In this document: piece after piece, positions 40,597-47,559 of the stretch
Position numbering within the stretch: the stretch's first letter is position 1
Layout of the letters: each line of letters starts with the position of its first letter
Assembly (NCBI GenBank): GCA_903837355.1
Contig: CAILUI010000291.1
Coordinates: 2,476 to 66,475, forward strand
DNA length: 64,000 nt
Reading direction: 5' to 3'
DNA from: an uncultured Victivallales bacterium
GTDB lineage: Bacteria; Verrucomicrobiota; Lentisphaeria; Oligosphaerales; JAFGRS01
Made by a program: the position numbers and the translations under genes
The notes under the pieces: model-generated
What the model was told of the DNA's origin: nothing
What the model saw: the letters and a program-made list of their open reading frames with translations, nothing else
Databases searched by the model: none

Positions 40597-42480
40597 ATGT
40601 TATATGACAATAAACGAAGGGTTGGTACCTGTCAACCTCGCTGCCTCAGTTTTTCGCGGGTGTGGGCTGGCCACCTAGGCTGCGGGCTGCGGCGGTGGTG
40701 CGTTTTGCTGGCGCTGGTGCTGGGCGGCGTGGGTGTGCGCCTGGGCGCGGAGCGCATTCCTCTCTACAACGGTGGCGAGGCCGAGTTCGAGGTCGTTGGG
40801 CGCAGCACCAAGGGCCTGGACGTGCGCACACGCGATGGTACCGTCCGCCGCTTGCGCTGGGACCAGATTGACCGGTCGTACGTGCAGCACCCCATGCACG
40901 GGCGCAGGTTTCGCTACGAGGAGGGTTCTCCGGCGCCAGCGGACAACGTGTTACCGGGAGTCGTCGATGCGGGTTCTGGGGGGCACTTTACCGCCGTCTT
41001 GGGCCTGGCGTTCGCGCTGTTCTGGCTGTGGGTGTACAGCCTTTGGCGCATGGGGATATCGGGGATCTACGACAGTGACCGGCAGCGGTGGGTGAACCTC
41101 GCCACGTTCCTGTTCGGGCCGCTGCTGGCCATCCCGATCGTGCTTCGGCACCGGGGGCTTGCTGGGCTGGGGGCCTTCCCGCGGCGCAAAGACCCGACCT
41201 TCAGCGACCCTGGGGTTCCGGCCTGCCGTTTCTTCACCTGGGACAACGAGCCCCTGGTGGCCACGTCGAAGCGCCGCTTTGCGTCTGGGTTGGCGCTGGC
41301 GGAGTTGGTGATGTCACGAGCGGTGAAGGCTGGCGCCAGCGATGTGCATTTCGACATGTCGCCCAAAGGGGTCAAGATGGCGATGCGCGTCGACGGGGTC
41401 CTGCGCGCGCCGGAGATATTGGATGCGGACTACGGCCGCAAGGCGATGACGGCGATCAAGATGGCCGCCGGCATGGATCTCGCCAAGATGCAGGAGACTC
41501 AGGATGGGGCCTGCCATCTGGAGTCGGGCAGCCAGTCCTACGATCTGCGTGTCGCGCGGGCTTGGGCGGTCACCGGCGAGACCTTGGTCGTGCGGCTGCT
41601 GCGGGCCGGCGGAGTCGGCGAGGACCTGGCCTCGATGGGCATGCCGGCCGGCATGGCGGCGGTGACGCAGGACCTGACCAAGGAGACGGCGGGATTGGTC
41701 ATCATGTGCGGCCCCACCGGGTCAGGTAAGACCTCCACTATCTACGCGTTACTGCGGCGCACTCAGGGAACCGGGCGGAACATTCTGACCATCGAGGACC
41801 CGGTTGAGTACCGCCTTGAGCACGCCACGCAGATCAGCCTCAACGCGGCCTTGGGTACCACCTTCGCCAGCGCTCTGAAGGCCTCGATGCGGCATGATCC
41901 GGACGTCATTCTGGTGGGCGAGATCCGGGACCGCGACGCGATGAATGTGGCCTTCCAGGCGGCGCTGACCGGGCACCTGGTGTTCACCACGATCCATGCG
42001 ACCTCGGTGCTGGCGGCGTTCGGGCGACTGAAGGAGCTCGGCCTGAGCGCCTACATGATCAATACCGGCCTGAAGGCGATCGTCTGTCAACGCCTCATCC
42101 GCCTGCTGTGCCCCGAGTGCCGAGAGCCCTATGTACCGGACGCGGCGGAGTTGCGTTTCTGGGGCATCGCACCGCGTCCCGCAGACCCCACCCACGTCTT
42201 CTATCGCCCGGCCGGGTGTAAACTGTGCGAGCAGTCTGGCTACCGCGGTCGGCGCGGGGTGTACCGTGTTCTGGTGATGAACAACGCGGTACGCTCCGTT
42301 GTCCGCGATGATATGGCCACCGGGGACTTGCAGGAGGCCGTCGAGAGGGCGGCGCTGGGGACCGCCGCGGACTTCGCCGCAGCCCTGCTATGGGACGGTA
42401 TCACCTCGCCCGATGAGATCGTCAAGACCCTGGATATGTTTGACTTCGGAAAGAAGTTGAGCCATGATGATGCGCTATGA
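40597..42480 (+). CDS. GspE/PilB-family secretion ATPase with unusual N-terminal hydrophobic/membrane region
   Basis: Walker A CGPTGSGKTS, Asp box ILTIEDPVEY, Walker B DVILVGEIRD, His box GHLVFTTIHA and tetracysteine CPEC...CKLC. The N-terminal ~200 aa contain three hydrophobic segments (WCVLLALVLGGVGV, FTAVLGLAFALFWLWVYSLW, VNLATFLFGPLLAIPIVL). Start is uncertain: ATG 40597 is chosen, and later in-frame GTGs are possible. Confidence 0.8.
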   Translation: MLYDNKRRVGTCQPRCLSFSRVWAGHLGCGLRRWCVLLALVLGGVGVRLGAERIPLYNGGEAEFEVVGRSTKGLDVRTRDGTVRRLRWDQIDRSYVQHPMHGRRFRYEEGSPAPADNVLPGVVDAGSGGHFTAVLGLAFALFWLWVYSLWRMGISGIYDSDRQRWVNLATFLFGPLLAIPIVLRHRGLAGLGAFPRRKDPTFSDPGVPACRFFTWDNEPLVATSKRRFASGLALAELVMSRAVKAGASDVHFDMSPKGVKMAMRVDGVLRAPEILDADYGRKAMTAIKMAAGMDLAKMQETQDGACHLESGSQSYDLRVARAWAVTGETLVVRLLRAGGVGEDLASMGMPAGMAAVTQDLTKETAGLVIMCGPTGSGKTSTIYALLRRTQGTGRNILTIEDPVEYRLEHATQISLNAALGTTFASALKASMRHDPDVILVGEIRDRDAMNVAFQAALTGHLVFTTIHATSVLAAFGRLKELGLSAYMINTGLKAIVCQRLIRLLCPECREPYVPDAAELRFWGIAPRPADPTHVFYRPAGCKLCEQSGYRGRRGVYRVLVMNNAVRSVVRDDMATGDLQEAVERAALGTAADFAAALLWDGITSPDEIVKTLDMFDFGKKLSHDDAL

Positions 42481-43066
42481 ACTGGTCGTTGGCGGGGTTC
42501 TGCTGCTCGCTTGCGTTCTGGTGGTGAAGGTGGTCTGGGATCTGCACACGCTGCCGCGCCTGGCCGTCTGCCTGAACCTGCTGTGGGCCATGTTCGCGGC
42601 CTTCCACGTCTGGCCCGTGGTGCAGGGCTGGGTGGGGGGCCTGGCGCTGGCCTGGGAAGGGTTCCCCATCGCCGCGGCGTCGTTCTGGATCGCCTTCCTG
42701 CTGGCCGCCTTGCCGGGTGCCGCCCTCTATCGCTGGACGGTGCGCGACGCACCGGTGGACTTCCCCGTGTTCTTTGACTGGCTCAGCGGCTTGGCGTGCA
42801 GCGCTCTCGGGGTGTGGCTGGTGCCGTGCCTGGTCGTTATGACGGTATCGATAACCCCGGCCACGGCGAGCAACGTGCTGCCCAGCGAGGGGGCTTCCGG
42901 TCGTCTGGCCGCGATCATGCGTGCCACCCCGTTGCAGCTTTACCTGGGCGTGGCTGAAGCCGCTGGGGGTGAGCGGCGCGAGGCCCTGCTGGCAGCGCGA
43001 ATTCCGGCGGCACTCAAAGACCAGGTGTTTCCGCGCAGTCCCGCTCGCCGGGGCAAGCAGCCCTGA
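42464..43066 (+). CDS. small four-TM membrane protein (CvpA-like architecture), translationally overlapping the ATPase gene
   Basis: ATGATGATG at 42464 overlaps the ATPase 3' end by 17 nt. Four hydrophobic helices followed by a charged tail. The CvpA resemblance is architectural only. Confidence 0.65.
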   Translation: MMMRYELVVGGVLLLACVLVVKVVWDLHTLPRLAVCLNLLWAMFAAFHVWPVVQGWVGGLALAWEGFPIAAASFWIAFLLAALPGAALYRWTVRDAPVDFPVFFDWLSGLACSALGVWLVPCLVVMTVSITPATASNVLPSEGASGRLAAIMRATPLQLYLGVAEAAGGERREALLAARIPAALKDQVFPRSPARRGKQP

Positions 43067-43169
43067 GGTTCCACGCGGTCGAGGGCAGGGGGGAGTTGCG
43101 TTAGGCGTCGCCGTGGCGGACGCCAGGGTCGCGGTCCGTCCCGCGGGAGCCTGCTGGATGCGTCGCGGC

Positions 43170-44264
43170 TCAGGTGAGGTTGTCGAGGATGTGCTGCTGC
43201 CTGTCGATGGACTCTTCGTGAATCGCCTTGAAGATGACATCGACAAAGCTCTGGCTGAGTCCGTGCTCCGTGCCCCGCTGGTGAACCCGCTTGACGATCT
43301 GGTCCCAGCGGCCTGCTTGCAGCACGGTAATGCCGTTCTCTTTCTTGATCCGCCCGATGTGCTCGACGACATCCATACGGCGGGCCAGGATGGACAGCAG
43401 GTCACCGTCGAGTTGGTCGATCGCCTCGCGCAGTTCGCTGAGATGGCGCTGGTAGTCGGAGTCAACACTGTTCGCCTCGCGCAGCACAAGGGCGCGGAGG
43501 ATGCTGCCCAGTTCCTGCGGCGTCACCTGCTGGGCGGCGTCGCTCCAGGCGCTATCGGGGTCGCAATGGGACTCGACCATCAGGCCGTTGAAGTCGAGGT
43601 TCACCGCACGCTGTGCGATATCGTGCAGCAGATCACGGCGGCCGGCGATGTGGCTGGGGTCGCAGAACATGGGCAGGTTGGGCAGGCGCCGCCGTACCTC
43701 GATCGGGATCTGCCACTGGGGTTCGTTCCGCAAGGTTGATTTCTCAACCCCCGAGAAGCCGCGGTGCAGCGCCGCAATACGGTGGATTCCGGCCTTGTTC
43801 AGGCGCTCGATGGCGCCGATCCACAGCTCCACGTCCGGGTTGATCGGATTCTTGACCAGTACCGGGATGTCGACGCCGATCAAGGCATCCGCGATCTCCT
43901 GGATGGCGAAGGGGTTGACGCTGGTGCGGGCGCCGACCCAGAGGAGGTCGATACCGGCCTTCAGGGCCTCGTAAACGTGCTTCACATTCGCGACTTCGAT
44001 GATCGTCAGCAGGCCGGTTTCGGCCTTGACGCGCTGCAGCCAGCGCAGGCCGGGCGTACCGACCCCCTCGAATGAGCCGGGCCGGGTACGGGGCTTCCAG
44101 ATGCCGGCGCGGTAGATCTCGACGCCAAGTTCCTTGACGCCGCGCGCCGTGCTCATGACCTGGTCTTCAGTCTCGGCGCTGCACGGCCCCGCGATGACGA
44201 TCGGCTTGCGGATGCTGCGCAGGCCCCAGGAGCTGAGGGGAGCGATGTTGAGTTCGGTGGCCAT
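43170..44264 (-). CDS. bifunctional 3-deoxy-7-phosphoheptulonate (DAHP) synthase / chorismate mutase
   Basis: N-terminal type I-beta DAHPS/KDO8PS-like barrel (VIAGPCSAETEDQV, YRAGIWKPRTRPGSFEGVG, FCDPSHIAGRRDL). C-terminal AroQ-type chorismate mutase (LRALVLREANSVDSDYQRHLSELREAIDQLDGDLLSILARRMDVVEHIGRIKKENG). Confidence 0.85.
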   Translation of the reverse strand: MATELNIAPLSSWGLRSIRKPIVIAGPCSAETEDQVMSTARGVKELGVEIYRAGIWKPRTRPGSFEGVGTPGLRWLQRVKAETGLLTIIEVANVKHVYEALKAGIDLLWVGARTSVNPFAIQEIADALIGVDIPVLVKNPINPDVELWIGAIERLNKAGIHRIAALHRGFSGVEKSTLRNEPQWQIPIEVRRRLPNLPMFCDPSHIAGRRDLLHDIAQRAVNLDFNGLMVESHCDPDSAWSDAAQQVTPQELGSILRALVLREANSVDSDYQRHLSELREAIDQLDGDLLSILARRMDVVEHIGRIKKENGITVLQAGRWDQIVKRVHQRGTEHGLSQSFVDVIFKAIHEESIDRQQHILDNLT

Positions 44265-44319
44265 GGTGGCGGTTCCTGCCTGGCTGGTATTCGGGTCGCG
44301 GCGGCGCACCCAGCGGCGT

Positions 44320-45213
44320 CTAGCCGTTGAGCACGCGGCGGATGCGGTTGGCGTCGCTGATCAGGTCATGCAGCGGCTTCTCGGCCTTCTCGGCGATATG
44401 CCGTCTAAACTCTTCGAGTTTGCGGATATAGGCATCCAGGACGTTGACCACGTTCTCGCTGTTCTGCTGGAAGATCGGGGTCCACATGTCCGCGGAGCTT
44501 TTGGCCAGGCGTGCGGTGGAACTGAAGCCGCCGCTGGCCAGGTCAAAGATCGCCTTCTCATCCTTCTCTTTGTCGAGGACGGTGATGGCCAGGGCAAAAC
44601 TGATGACATGCGAGATATGGGACACATAGGCGACGTGCATGTCGTGTCGCTCGGCCTCCATGTGCACCATGCGCATGTTCAGGGCGGCATACAGGCGTTC
44701 GATGCTGCCGACGGCGTCTGGGGCACTGTCATCGCGGTCGCAGATGATCGCCGCTTTGCTGTCAAAGAGCCCGGAGAGGGCGGCCCAGGGCCCGGAGAAC
44801 TCCGTGCCGGCCATGGGGTGGGAGGTCACGAAGCGGCGGCGGTGAGGGTGGTGGCGGACCGTCTCCACCAGCGTCTGTTTGGTGGAGGCCACGTCGGTGA
44901 CGACCTGGTGCTCGCCGATACGGTCCAAGACCGTGGGGAGCAGGCTGATGGTGACATTCACCGGGACTGCCAGCAGGATCACATCGGCTCGCGCCATGGC
45001 TTCGTCGAGCTCGGCGAGGTCATCCACCAGACCAATCCGCAAGGCTGTAGCCGCGTGCAGGCGGTCGCGATCGACGCCGATCACCTGCCGCGCATAGCCA
45101 CGGCGTTTGAGGTCGATGGCCATCGAGCCCCCGATCAGGCCGAGGCCGACGACCGCCAACACGATCCCGCCCGCGGGCGGTTCCGGCAAACGACTGGGTG
45201 CAGGGTTGTCCAT
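44320..45213 (-). CDS. tyrA: prephenate (or arogenate) dehydrogenase
   Basis: Rossmann motif LAVVGLGLIGGSMAIDLKRRGY, PMAG motif (SHPMAGTE) and ARLAKSSADMWTPIF, typical of TyrA. Confidence 0.85.
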   Translation of the reverse strand: MDNPAPSRLPEPPAGGIVLAVVGLGLIGGSMAIDLKRRGYARQVIGVDRDRLHAATALRIGLVDDLAELDEAMARADVILLAVPVNVTISLLPTVLDRIGEHQVVTDVASTKQTLVETVRHHPHRRRFVTSHPMAGTEFSGPWAALSGLFDSKAAIICDRDDSAPDAVGSIERLYAALNMRMVHMEAERHDMHVAYVSHISHVISFALAITVLDKEKDEKAIFDLASGGFSSTARLAKSSADMWTPIFQQNSENVVNVLDAYIRKLEEFRRHIAEKAEKPLHDLISDANRIRRVLNG

Positions 45214-45219
45214 GGGATT

Positions 45220-46122
45220 TCAGCAGGGCACTTCCACGCCCGCCCCTTGGGGTTGTCCGATGTTCTGTTTATACATGCTCTCAAAAGACTTCTGTCCCTG
45301 TCTGTACTCGCCAAGCACCTCGAAAATGTCGGTGAGGGGGCGGATGGCTGACAAGGCCTGTCGGTAGCGGTTGAAGTCGCTGAAACAGACGTCCACATAG
45401 AATAGGTAGCGCCACTCCTCGCCGATGATGGGGAGGCTCTGGATCTTGGTCAGGTTCATGCCGTAGAAGGCCAGGACACTGAGTACCTGCGACAGGCAGC
45501 CGACCTGATGCTGGAGCGAGAAGCAGATGCTGGATTTGTCGGCGTTCCTGATCTCCCTGGCGTTGAGTTCGTCGGTCAGGATCAGGAAGCGCGTGTAGTT
45601 GACCCTATTGGCCTCAATCTCGTCAGCGAGAACCTCCAGGCCGTAGAGCTCCGCCGCGCGGACGTTGGCGATCGCGGCGGTGCCGGGGCGGCGTTCGTCG
45701 GCGATGCGCTTGGCGCTAGTGGCGGTGTCCCCCGCCGCGATCAGTTTGATTCTGGGCAGGGACTTGAAGAAGGTCCGGCACTGGTTGATTGCCATCGGGT
45801 GTGAGTAGACCTCGGTGAGCTCCGCTACCTTCTGCCCCTTAAGCCCGACCAGGCTGAGGGCGATGCGCAGGTAGGACTCGCCGACCACCCGGAGTTTCGA
45901 CTCCCGCAGCAGTGCGTAGTTAGGCAGAATACTCCCCGCAACCGTGTTCTCGATCGCCATGACCCCGTAGTCGGCGTCGCGCCGCCCCAAGGCGGCGAAG
46001 AGCTCGTCAAAGGTCTCCGTGGTGACCAGCACTACAGGCTGCTCGAAGTAGCTGACGGCAGCCATCTCGTGGAAGGACCCACTGATCCCCTGAATGGCGA
46101 CTCGAACCGGCTGGCTGGCCAT
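45220..46122 (-). CDS. pheA: prephenate dehydratase with ACT domain
   Basis: VRVAIQGISGSFHEMAA, TRFLIL motif (NYTRFLILTD) and C-terminal ACT region with ESRP-like motif variant (IQSLPI). Confidence 0.85.
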   Translation of the reverse strand: MASQPVRVAIQGISGSFHEMAAVSYFEQPVVLVTTETFDELFAALGRRDADYGVMAIENTVAGSILPNYALLRESKLRVVGESYLRIALSLVGLKGQKVAELTEVYSHPMAINQCRTFFKSLPRIKLIAAGDTATSAKRIADERRPGTAAIANVRAAELYGLEVLADEIEANRVNYTRFLILTDELNAREIRNADKSSICFSLQHQVGCLSQVLSVLAFYGMNLTKIQSLPIIGEEWRYLFYVDVCFSDFNRYRQALSAIRPLTDIFEVLGEYRQGQKSFESMYKQNIGQPQGAGVEVPC

Positions 46123-46156
46123 GGCGACATCTCACAGGTTGCGGTCCATAAGAACG

Positions 46157-46188
46157 AAAAACCGACCTCGTTTTGGCGAGGCCGGTCG
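46157..46188 (-). terminator. intrinsic terminator (segment 3:4 of the pheA attenuator)
   Basis: Minus strand reads ACCGGCCUCG-CCAAAA-CGAGGUCGGU followed by UUUUUCGUUCUU. That is a 10-bp GC-rich stem (one G-U) plus a U-run, ending about 35 nt before pheA ATG 46122. Confidence 0.75.
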
Positions 46189-46225
46189 TTGTTCCGTCAT
46201 CCGTGCGGGAAACCACGACCACGCC

Positions 46226-46279
46226 TCAGCCGCTAAAGCGGAAGGCGAAGTCATAGCGGTAATAACGCACGGTCTTCAT
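46226..46279 (-). CDS. 17-aa Tyr/Phe-rich leader peptide (pheL-like)
   Basis: Minus strand reads ATG AAG ACC GTG CGT TAT TAC CGC TAT GAC TTC GCC TTC CGC TTT AGC GGC TGA = MKTVRYYRYDFAFRFSG. It has 3 Tyr and 3 Phe codons. The stop codon lies inside the antiterminator segment. Too short for the supplied ORF track. Confidence 0.65.
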   Translation of the reverse strand: MKTVRYYRYDFAFRFSG

Positions 46280-46336
46280 CGTCTACTCGGTATTCCGCGG
46301 CTCAGGCATCGTCACCCAACCGCAATCAACACCCAA

Positions 46337-46365
46337 ACAGTATCCTCTCGCCGGGCCTCTGTCAA
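46337..46365 (-). promoter_or_regulatory. candidate sigma70-type promoter for leader-pheA-tyrA-DAHPS/CM transcript
   Basis: Minus strand has TTGACA (46365-46360), 17 nt spacer, then TACTGT (46342-46337). The -35 is consensus and the -10 keeps T1, A2 and T6. It lies about 55 nt upstream of the leader ATG. Confidence 0.4.
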
Positions 46366-46371
46366 GGCGGC

Positions 46372-47559
46372 CTACACCGGCTTCGCTGCCGGGAGGGCAG
46401 CCAGGACGCTGGCGCGAAAGGCTTCGAGGTTCTGCACGTCGTAGTGGACGTAGCGACCGCGGCTGACGCGGCGGTCGAACTCATCGCCGGCGAGCATCAG
46501 GCTGGTGATATGGCGCCCTTCGCGGCTGAAGGCGTGGACGCGTCCGCTGCGTCCGGCGACGATGACCGACTGCTTGAAGCGGTCGGTATAGACATCCTGC
46601 ACCGAGGCGGCGACCATGTCGTCGAAGGCCTTATGGACCGGCCGGTTCTGGCCGGCTCGGAGCTCGGCGTGCTGGGTACGTCGCCACTGCTGGCGCCCCT
46701 TCTGCTCGATGGAGTGCGCCAGATGGCGCAGGATGGCAAAGGCCTTCTCGCGCGTTTCGTCGTCCTGTTCCCGGCGGTTGGCGTGCTGCCAGAGATCGCC
46801 GAGTGCAGCGGTCTGGCGTCGCGTCTCGGCGATGGCGTCGTAGACGCGTCCGCAGGCAGAATGCTGGTCCTGGGGGGCATCGGCGAGCGCCTCGCGCAGC
46901 CGCGGGGCGGCGAGCACCTGCAGGTGCAGTTGGTGGCGTTGGTCCTCGACGATCTGCGCGCTGAGGGCTGCCCGCGTGCCCTTGACCTGCAGGTATCCCG
47001 CCACGACCTGTCCCCAGACTCGGTAGGTGAAGGAGTTGCGTCCGAAGGTCCGCAACTGGGTGGCGACCAGACGGGTCCTTCCCACCACTCGCGCCAGCAA
47101 CTCCGGTTGCTCGTCGAAGAGCCTATCGGTGCGCTCATCGCCTAACTCGAGAAGGAAACTGAAGAACTCCTGCCAGCAAGGCCGGCCGGTCGACTCGTAG
47201 CCCGTGAAAACCTCGCCGGCGAGGGCCGGGATGGCATGGTCGCAATCTGCACCGCCGCACGCATAGCAGTAGGCGCGGCCGCTGGTGAAGACGCGCGCCA
47301 CTGACGACATTTCCGAGAAATGCCGGAACGCCTCCGCTGCCAGTTCGGCGGGCGAGACGCCCGGATGCCAGTGCAGGTGGAGCCCGGCAGCGCTGGGCGG
47401 ATCGGCGGCGCGGCCGCTGCTTTCCAGGGCCGCGGCCTGGACCAGATCCTGGAGGGCGCGGTGTGCGACGGCCGCGGCCTGCACCAGGTGTGCCGGGCAG
47501 GCTGCGCTTGCCTCGCCGTCTGGCGGGGGTACTGCGGGGTGCTCTTGGCCTGCCGCCAT
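46372..47559 (-). CDS. hypothetical 395-aa protein (no recognised domain), 21 nt downstream of parC
   Basis: Long ORF with codon usage like its neighbours. Contains CYACGGADCDH and a charged helical middle part. No family recognised. Confidence 0.65.
   Translation of the reverse strand: MAAGQEHPAVPPPDGEASAACPAHLVQAAAVAHRALQDLVQAAALESSGRAADPPSAAGLHLHWHPGVSPAELAAEAFRHFSEMSSVARVFTSGRAYCYACGGADCDHAIPALAGEVFTGYESTGRPCWQEFFSFLLELGDERTDRLFDEQPELLARVVGRTRLVATQLRTFGRNSFTYRVWGQVVAGYLQVKGTRAALSAQIVEDQRHQLHLQVLAAPRLREALADAPQDQHSACGRVYDAIAETRRQTAALGDLWQHANRREQDDETREKAFAILRHLAHSIEQKGRQQWRRTQHAELRAGQNRPVHKAFDDMVAASVQDVYTDRFKQSVIVAGRSGRVHAFSREGRHITSLMLAGDEFDRRVSRGRYVHYDVQNLEAFRASVLAALPAAKPV

Follow-up and report, generated by a model that had tools for sequence, protein, structure and literature searches.

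A predicted Phe/Tyr leader-peptide attenuator upstream of the pheA-tyrA-DAHPS/CM operon in an uncultured Lentisphaerota bacterium

How do bacteria of the phylum Lentisphaerota, which has been little studied and is mostly uncultured, regulate the synthesis of phenylalanine (Phe) and tyrosine (Tyr)? The question is raised by a locus on contig CAILUI010000291.1 of an uncultured Victivallales bacterium, from which a stretch of 64,000 nucleotides (nt) was analyzed (the window; 66.7% G+C). On its minus strand, pheA (prephenate dehydratase, PDT; 45220–46122, ATG at 46122) is followed by tyrA (prephenate dehydrogenase; 44320–45213) and a fusion of DAHP synthase and chorismate mutase (DAHPS/CM; 43170–44309), and the region before pheA, read on the minus strand from 46450 to 46050, contains a short open reading frame (ORF) rich in Phe and Tyr codons and an intrinsic terminator. 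Judging from the comparative and folding evidence below, this region is very probably a ribosome-mediated leader-peptide transcription attenuator, which would sense charged tRNA-Phe and tRNA-Tyr together and control read-through into pheA-tyrA-DAHPS/CM. A reading made from the letters of the DNA alone (hereafter the sequence-only reading) had proposed an element of this kind, and every sequence feature it claimed on the minus strand was found in its place by direct reading. The downstream operon that it named is likewise borne out by Pfam and NCBIfam matches for all three genes. The regulated operon spans 43170–46122 (minus strand) with intergenic gaps of 6 and 10 nt, and the same gene order is also found on related Lentisphaerota contigs.

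The leader ORF and its alternative RNA structures

The leader ORF (46226–46279; all coordinates of the element refer to the minus strand) runs from an ATG at 46279 to a TGA at 46228–46226. Its 17 codons encode MKTVRYYRYDFAFRFSG, with Tyr at codons 6, 7, and 9 and Phe at codons 11, 13, and 15, the same six aromatic residues of 17 that had been counted before. In a census of mini-ORFs of 8–45 amino acids on both strands of the 64-kb window (1652 in total), at least five Phe/Tyr per 11 residues occurred only in this ORF and its nested GTG version. The probability of at least six Phe/Tyr in 16 residues is 1.8e-4 when computed from protein composition, Phe and Tyr together accounting for 5.8% of the codons of six neighbouring genes, and 2e-6 when computed from base composition. 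No other amino-acid-enriched mini-ORF followed by a T-run was found in a whole-window scan. The predicted fold of the 161-nt leader has an energy of −69.4 kcal/mol (z = −4.2), a stability equalled by none of 200 shuffles, and its terminator hairpin with U-run is the sole minus-strand terminator-like site within 42–48 kb.

Four segments of the leader RNA offer alternative pairings. Segment 1 (CGCCUUCCGC, 46247–46238) pairs with segment 2 (GCGGCUGAGGCGUGGUCG, 46233–46216), which contains the stop codon. The resulting 1:2 structure (46201–46272), an anti-antiterminator or pause hairpin recovered in the minimum free energy (MFE) fold and by RNAalifold, is a long imperfect hairpin with an inner helix (46247–46238 with 46233–46222, the hairpin CCGC-UUUA-GCGG included) and an outer helix (46272–46266 with 46207–46201), through which leader codons 3–5 pair about 20 nt 3′ of the stop codon; with the outer helix added, it is bigger than in the earlier account. 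The core of segment 2 (GAGGCGUGGUCG, 46216–46227), whose first bases lie inside the TGA, is the 5′ half of an antiterminator completed by segment 3 (CGACCGGCCUCGCC, 46175–46188), which is also the 5′ arm of the terminator. This 2:3 pairing (46227–46216 with 46188–46178) comprises 11 bp with one bulge and a duplex energy of −19.2 kcal/mol, and none of 200 dinucleotide shuffles gave a duplex as good. The intrinsic terminator (46150–46187) consists of a stem of 11 bp, seven of them G-C (46187–46177 with 46170–46160), a 6-nt loop (CCAAAA), and UUUUUCGUUCUU, with the U-run at 46161–46157 and CGUUCUU next; its hairpin energy is −18.6 kcal/mol. The stem had been recognized correctly in the sequence-only reading, its length (given as 10 bp) had not.

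Folding of the region, a check suggested with that reading, gave −53.7 kcal/mol for the terminator state of the free RNA and −39.1 kcal/mol for the antiterminator state. A translating ribosome was then represented by masking all RNA between the 5′ end and a point 13 nt beyond the A-site codon's first base; the folds predicted for the remainder follow the logic of a classical attenuator. The switch was judged on a transcript ending right after segment 3, a stand-in for co-transcriptional folding on which the conclusion hinges, because full-length equilibrium folds favoured the terminator at most codons. On this transcript, the antiterminator is absent from the MFE fold when codons 2–4 occupy the A site, segment 2 being held by the 1:2 hairpin, and complete (11 bp) at codons 5–14, a range that spans all three Tyr codons and two of the three Phe codons. 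It is partial at codon 15 and at codon 16 (6 of 11 pairs) and absent at codon 17 and the stop codon, as well as in the ribosome-free fold. Codons 9–13 appear in these models to be the best-placed stall sites.

From this anatomy we infer that the leader ORF is translated, that ribosomes stall in it, and that termination before pheA responds to the supply of the two amino acids. Transcription would start about 50 nt 5′ of the 17-codon ORF. When Phe and Tyr are ample, the ribosome would reach the UGA, and its footprint would hide segment 2, which starts inside the stop codon. Segment 3 would then be free for segment 4, and the 11-bp terminator with its U-run would halt RNA polymerase before pheA. 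When Phe or Tyr is scarce, the ribosome would stall at the Tyr/Phe codons and break the 1:2 hairpin; segment 2 would pair with segment 3 once the latter is made, no terminator would form, and the operon would be transcribed. If the leader is not translated at all, the long 1:2 hairpin would sequester segment 2 and transcription would end at the terminator.

Conservation among Lentisphaerota relatives

A total of 177 loci with relatives of the window PheA were collected through a genome scan, a metagenome scan, and twelve exact-protein look-ups. The genome scan contributed two Lentisphaerota among its 80 loci, and the close relatives came from the exact-protein look-ups and the metagenome scan. 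A leader ORF and a terminator are present in all 15 other Lentisphaerota-clade loci having enough upstream DNA, and the PheA proteins of these loci are 56–94% identical to that of the window. Their leaders read MNTVRYYRYAFAFRFGG (L081), MNTVRFYSYYFAFRVGG (L161), MVSVRYHGHIAAFRFSG (L082), MVSVRYYGHVVAFRFSG (L164), MTAVRYYSYYYAFRFSG (L083), MATVRYHGYYYAFRFSG (L162), MTTVRYYGFGFAYRFSG (L168), MTALRYYGTSYAFRFSG (L001), MTAPRYYGTSYAFRFSG (L170), MTCTATFFFGEGYRFTY (L172), MTARFEYGYAYVFAF (L173), MTQNHNTCYRFYFYARFTG (L174), MRTTTTQGWYGYYRFSFRSG (L176; start of the peptide as listed), MNLNTYSFAFYFYRFYR (L002), and MNRNRYYEFSYYFP (L177). The ten closest leaders were aligned (alignment A2). The ATG, the TGA, and the length of 17 codons do not vary among them, and codons 6, 9, 11, and 13 show swaps between Phe and Tyr or His in place of Tyr. 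His codons (CAC/CAT) stand for Tyr at leader positions 7 and/or 9 in L082, L164, and L162. In the ten close relatives, none of the three codon positions varies within a 24-nt block around the stop codon (GCCUUCCGCUUUAGCGGCUGAGGC), an invariance attributed to the double task of segment 2, which has segment 1 and segment 3 as alternative partners.

The helices are conserved along with the ORF. For the 1:2 structure and the terminator together, 91.8% of sequence-by-pair cells are paired, compared with 31–54% with slid partners, and six pairs change on both sides, three of them in the outer helix. Across the ten relatives, the outer helix keeps its pairs in 96% of cells and the inner helix in 94%, with five pairs of these helices changing on both sides, and the terminator stem is 100% paired. 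RNAalifold, run independently on 10 sequences, returned the same long 1:2 hairpin and terminator. The antiterminator pairs are kept in 99% of cells in the ten relatives, with one compensatory pair (C-G to U-A). Both a Phe/Tyr-rich mini-ORF, in the 15 other clade loci, and compensatory stem changes, as the sequence-only reading had suggested looking for by alignment, were thus seen.

In 15 of the 16 clade sequences, the terminator 5′ arm forms its best duplex with upstream RNA 0 to +15 nt from the leader stop; in the sixteenth, L176, another antiterminator was found by eye inside a longer ORF. Of 200 dinucleotide shuffles, no more than 8 equalled the best duplex in any of the ten close relatives, and 1 to 49 did so in the five divergent ones. 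Divergent relatives have different antiterminator sequences at the same position (GGCGGGGUU/GGCCCCGCC in L177, GCGGGGCCGG/CCGGCCCCG in L173), and this tracking of the stop codon is the strongest argument for an attenuator. The four-segment ribosome-stalling geometry with the stop codon in segment 2, proposed from the window by itself, is thereby strongly supported by comparative and folding evidence.

A sigma-70-type promoter is predicted upstream of the leader (46337–46365), with a −35 box TTGACA (46365–46360), a 17-nt spacer, and a −10 box TACTGT (46342–46337). A stricter consensus promoter scan did not pick up TTGACA-17-TACTGT, because TACTGT fits TATAAT at three of six positions and the −10 rule needs four. 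The promoter was accepted because it is conserved: all 13 related loci checked have a match to TTG(A/C)nn-16/17-TAnnnT 5′ of the leader, and in seven of the 13 the −10 end is 56–58 nt from the leader ATG. The genes farther 5′ vary by locus (the 395-amino-acid gene of the window, a divergent AA-kinase, a PAP2 gene, a transposase), and the element therefore belongs to, and travels with, pheA rather than the preceding gene.

The 5′ untranslated region, from the predicted transcript start to the leader ORF, contains a hairpin (46295–46327; GCGG...CCGC core at 46323–46297; predicted fold −14.3 kcal/mol), which could stabilise the RNA or influence leader translation. Hairpins of differing sequence occupy the same place in L081, L161, L082, L164, L162, L168, L001, and L170 (−14 to −32 kcal/mol). 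The hairpin might also form part of the switch.

Objections, rival explanations, and neighbouring features

Several observations weigh against the attenuator as described. On masked full-length RNA at equilibrium the terminator wins, and the antiterminator is the MFE structure only for A-site codons 11–12; the switch would therefore have to be kinetic, as in classical systems. Tyr codons 6 and 7 sit 5′ of segment 1, and their contribution is uncertain because a stall there lets the inner 1:2 helix form first. The Shine-Dalgarno-like sequence 5′ of the leader ATG is weak (GAG), and the aromatic density of the window leader (6/17) is below that of Bacteroidota leaders. The L082 leader (MVSVRYHGHIAAFRFSG) retains just one Tyr and two Phe, and the sensitivity of this locus to Tyr may be reduced. 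Most pairs in the invariant GCCUUCCGCUUUAGCGGCUGAGGC are uninformative, and the covariation amounts to few independent events among kin sequences.

Could the region instead be a constitutive or leaky terminator, an insulator, or the terminator of the 395-amino-acid gene, with the mini-ORF incidental and untranslated? The terminator is indeed strong (−18.6 kcal/mol hairpin) and lies 185 nt 3′ of the stop of that gene, and the weak Shine-Dalgarno-like sequence speaks for an incidental ORF. However, a conserved promoter separates the upstream gene from the leader in 13 of 13 loci, the leader and the terminator remain with pheA where the upstream gene differs or is divergent, and the position of the antiterminator follows the stop codon of the ORF. 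The frame, length, start, and stop of the ORF are invariant, and its Phe/Tyr richness recurs in 137 of 156 loci of unrelated nucleotide sequence. A plain terminator has only the slightest chance of being the right explanation, the smallest that we give to any rival.

The alternative structures by themselves do not name the sensor, which could be a ligand, an uncharged tRNA (T-box-like), or an RNA-binding protein (TRAP-/PyrR-like) in place of the ribosome position, and the invariance of the 24-nt stop-codon block at all codon positions is a constraint at the RNA level. This invariance is, however, accounted for by the double pairing of segment 2 with segments 1 and 3. No Rfam family, T-box and riboswitches included, matches at E ≤ 1, and the only family-wide feature is an ORF rich in codons for the two end products in RNA sequences that are otherwise wholly different; a sensor of this kind is very improbable. 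Just as improbable is a leader ORF that acts mainly through translation or mRNA stability (coupling, re-initiation at pheA) or through a small RNA or peptide in trans, and not through transcription attenuation. Trans-acting attenuator small RNAs and leader peptides exist, with rnTrpL and peTrpL of Sinorhizobium as examples (PMC7298713, PMC7968998), and a small ATG-ORF (46148–46131) lies behind the terminator. Coupling is opposed by the distance from the leader stop to the pheA ATG, which is too long (103 nt in the window and 230 nt in L083), and both the translational and the trans role by the conserved canonical intrinsic terminator with its U-run; a trans role would, moreover, supplement attenuation, not substitute for it. 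All three rivals fit the conservation pattern poorly. A ribosome-mediated attenuator, by comparison, agrees with what the computation found in the window, namely, the features of the classical systems: an ORF of end-product codons, a terminator, an antiterminator geometry, a 1:2 hairpin, and conservation.

The 395-amino-acid ORF (46372–47559, minus strand) ends with a TAG (46374–46372) directly 5′ of the attenuator. It matches no Pfam or NCBIfam family, its sole match being a sub-threshold one to the Csm6 HEPN domain (E = 0.022), and L161 is the only relative in which it precedes the leader. The leader of L167 has a DDE transposase gene on its 5′ side, and L083, L166, and L167 have about 130 nt extra between terminator and pheA compared with the window, their leaders being otherwise typical. 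A tiny ATG-ORF (46131–46148, minus strand; MDRNL-stop) starts right behind the terminator U-run in the window. The sequence UUAUGGACCGCAAC at this ORF is kept in L081 and L161, and in L081 the ATG is in frame with pheA and would add nine codons. At the other end of the operon, about 690 nt (42481–43169) separate the end of the DAHPS/CM gene from a convergent T2SSE-type ATPase gene. ORFs in this region (e.g., 42464–43066, plus strand, 200 amino acids) have no Pfam or NCBIfam family match, and no terminator-like site was detected in the gap beyond the DAHPS/CM gene. The named relatives of the window PheA and topoisomerase IV subunit A are from metagenome-assembled genomes (MAGs) of Lentisphaerae, Lentisphaeria, or Victivallales, with one exception labelled Verrucomicrobiota, and on these grounds the genome is assigned to Lentisphaerota.

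The wider pheA-leader family and known attenuators

The sequence-only reading held a mixed Tyr+Phe leader before such an operon in a genome of this type to be unusual and, as far as it knew, undescribed, a view that is not borne out. Among pheA loci with at least 300 nt of upstream sequence, an ATG mini-ORF with at least five Phe/Tyr in 8 residues was found on the sense strand in 137 of 156, compared with six on the antisense strand and none in shuffles, and two apparently leader-less loci have leaders with a GTG start. The leaders contain on average 5.4 Phe and 3.4 Tyr, with at least two Tyr in 134 of the 137, and a comparable terminator hairpin lies 3′ of the leader in 133 of 138 unique related loci. 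The family loci belong to Bacteroidales, Marinilabiliales (including cultured Carboxylicivirga species), Lentimicrobiaceae, Rikenellaceae, Chlorobiota, and Lentisphaerota, and the mixed leader is thus almost universal across the Bacteroidota, Chlorobiota, and Lentisphaerota loci of this PheA family. A transcriptome of Flavobacterium psychrophilum annotates a mixed Phe/Tyr leader, MNTNNTFYSNNSFYFYWNIGRDCYMVI (THC0290_N_0195), 5′ of pheA-aspC3 (PMC9723704, Table S7), with a 171-nt 5′ transcript, condition-dependent read-through, and maximal operon expression in minimal media (PMC9723704); this peptide is a typical member of the family. As early as 2011, pheL-like genes had been noted in Bacteroides (PMC3082878).

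The leader is not present throughout. No Phe/Tyr mini-ORF or attenuator was found 5′ of pheA in L014 (Kiritimatiellae MAG), L022 (Victivallales MAG), and L009 (Flavobacteriales MAG), whose PheA is of the same type (51–55% identity); in these lineages, the leader is lost or was never gained. Two separate Phe/Tyr-rich mini-ORFs precede pheA in L029, L031, L032, L051, L058, L060, L077, and other Bacteroidales, at about 130–155 and 250–300 nt, and may be tandem leaders or mark a second attenuated gene upstream.

Across the family, a fraction of about 0.7 of the terminator 5′ arm is paired with upstream RNA while the simulated ribosome is in the Phe/Tyr run, and 0.09 when it has reached the stop codon. 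Lacking a shuffled control, this profile serves as supporting evidence only, and part of the drop near the stop is expected because less upstream RNA stays unmasked. By the same rough, uncontrolled measure, antiterminator pairing without a ribosome, in truncated folds, averages 0.56 in the family and is 0.18 in the window, which suggests that many AT-rich Bacteroidota and metagenomic leaders (L003–L160) lack a 1:2 element and have a three-segment design. R1, a covariance model derived from the Lentisphaerota clade, has a single hit in the window (153 bits). The divergent Lentisphaerota loci L173 and L002 score 33 and 26 bits, a few metagenomic loci of higher GC content (L155, L112, L154, and L160) score 12–21 bits, and typical Bacteroidales are unmatched. 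Common descent with the Bacteroidota leaders is what we infer from the linkage to orthologous pheA.

A tentative scenario, for which the chances stand somewhat below even, is that the leader arrived together with a Bacteroidota-type pheA operon and was independently remodelled into the GC-rich Lentisphaerota element with its four segments. The element would have acquired a strong anti-antiterminator that makes untranslated transcripts terminate, where the AT-rich Bacteroidota versions would mostly be three-segment and read through by default when untranslated, and it would integrate tRNA-Tyr and tRNA-Phe via codons at mechanistically different positions. If this scenario is true, the family would provide a natural series of attenuator logic rebuilt as base composition changes, and the element would be the first leader-peptide attenuator described in the Planctomycetes-Verrucomicrobia-Chlamydiae (PVC) group. 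The literature searched yielded no description of such an element in Lentisphaerota.

Rfam searches returned no family at E ≤ 1 in 40–52 kb, none at the gathering score window-wide, and none in 12 related loci; in the 40–52 kb region, this includes Phe_leader, Bacteroid-trp, T-box, and riboswitch families. Matches to mir-278 and small nucleolar RNA families (E 0.15–0.7) were rejected as chance similarities to the terminator hairpin. For want of an Rfam family, both the mini-ORF and the attenuator escape genome annotation, and alignment A2 and model R1 could seed an Rfam-type family. For aromatic amino-acid biosynthesis in Lentisphaerota, the locus offers a specific regulatory element that can be put to the test, and the understanding of attenuation itself is unchanged by it.

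Among known systems, the arrangement in the window fits the Bacteroidota-type Phe/Tyr pheA leader, a Phe/Tyr-rich mini-ORF and terminator immediately 5′ of an orthologous stand-alone PDT gene whose operon also carries DAHPS/CM and tyrA. The two share the same stand-alone prephenate dehydratase (the window PheA is 50–58% identical to Bacteroidales PheA), a short ORF with mixed Phe/Tyr runs 120–170 nt 5′ of pheA, and a terminator 5′ arm that can pair with the 3′ end of the ORF. They differ in that the window element occurs in Lentisphaerota (PVC group) at 67% GC, with unrelated RNA sequence (R1 gives Bacteroidota-like loci at most 21 bits), fewer and more scattered aromatic codons (6/17 versus typically 8–11), and a sigma-70-type TTGACA/TAnnnT promoter. 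The window also has a strong 1:2 anti-antiterminator, whereas many AT-rich Bacteroidota versions seem to be without one, as far as the rough measure goes.

E. coli pheL contains Phe codons only and controls a single gene, a chorismate mutase-prephenate dehydratase fusion (CM-PDT), and E. coli tyrA is under separate control by TyrR. In contrast, the window leader mixes Tyr and Phe codons, and its operon makes both amino acids and the first enzyme of the common pathway. The enterobacterial pheL-pheA system (Rfam Phe_leader) and the window element are alike in having a leader ORF, a 1:2 pause hairpin, a 2:3 antiterminator, and a 3:4 terminator, as is generally known and described (PMC3082878), in the block of segment 2 by a ribosome terminating at the stop codon, and in the control of a prephenate dehydratase. 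Because no Rfam match was obtained at E ≤ 1, the window element is regarded as an analogue, not a demonstrable homologue, of enterobacterial pheL. Multivalent attenuators are represented in E. coli by the thr leader, with Thr and Ile codons, and the ilvGMEDA leader, with Ile, Leu, and Val codons. These resemble the window element in that one leader ORF carries codons for several end products of a pathway, but the amino acids and the pathway differ and the sequence is unrelated. The Bacteroid-trp leader (Rfam) is likewise a leader-peptide attenuator of an aromatic amino-acid operon, found in the Bacteroidota lineage, and was mapped by transcriptome in F. psychrophilum (PMC9723704 supplement), but it has Trp codons, precedes trpE, and does not match the window. 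What is already known is therefore the mixed Phe/Tyr pheA leader in Bacteroidota and the mechanism class of the classical attenuators; what is new here is the phylum, the strong four-segment design, and a near-universal family that has no Rfam entry.

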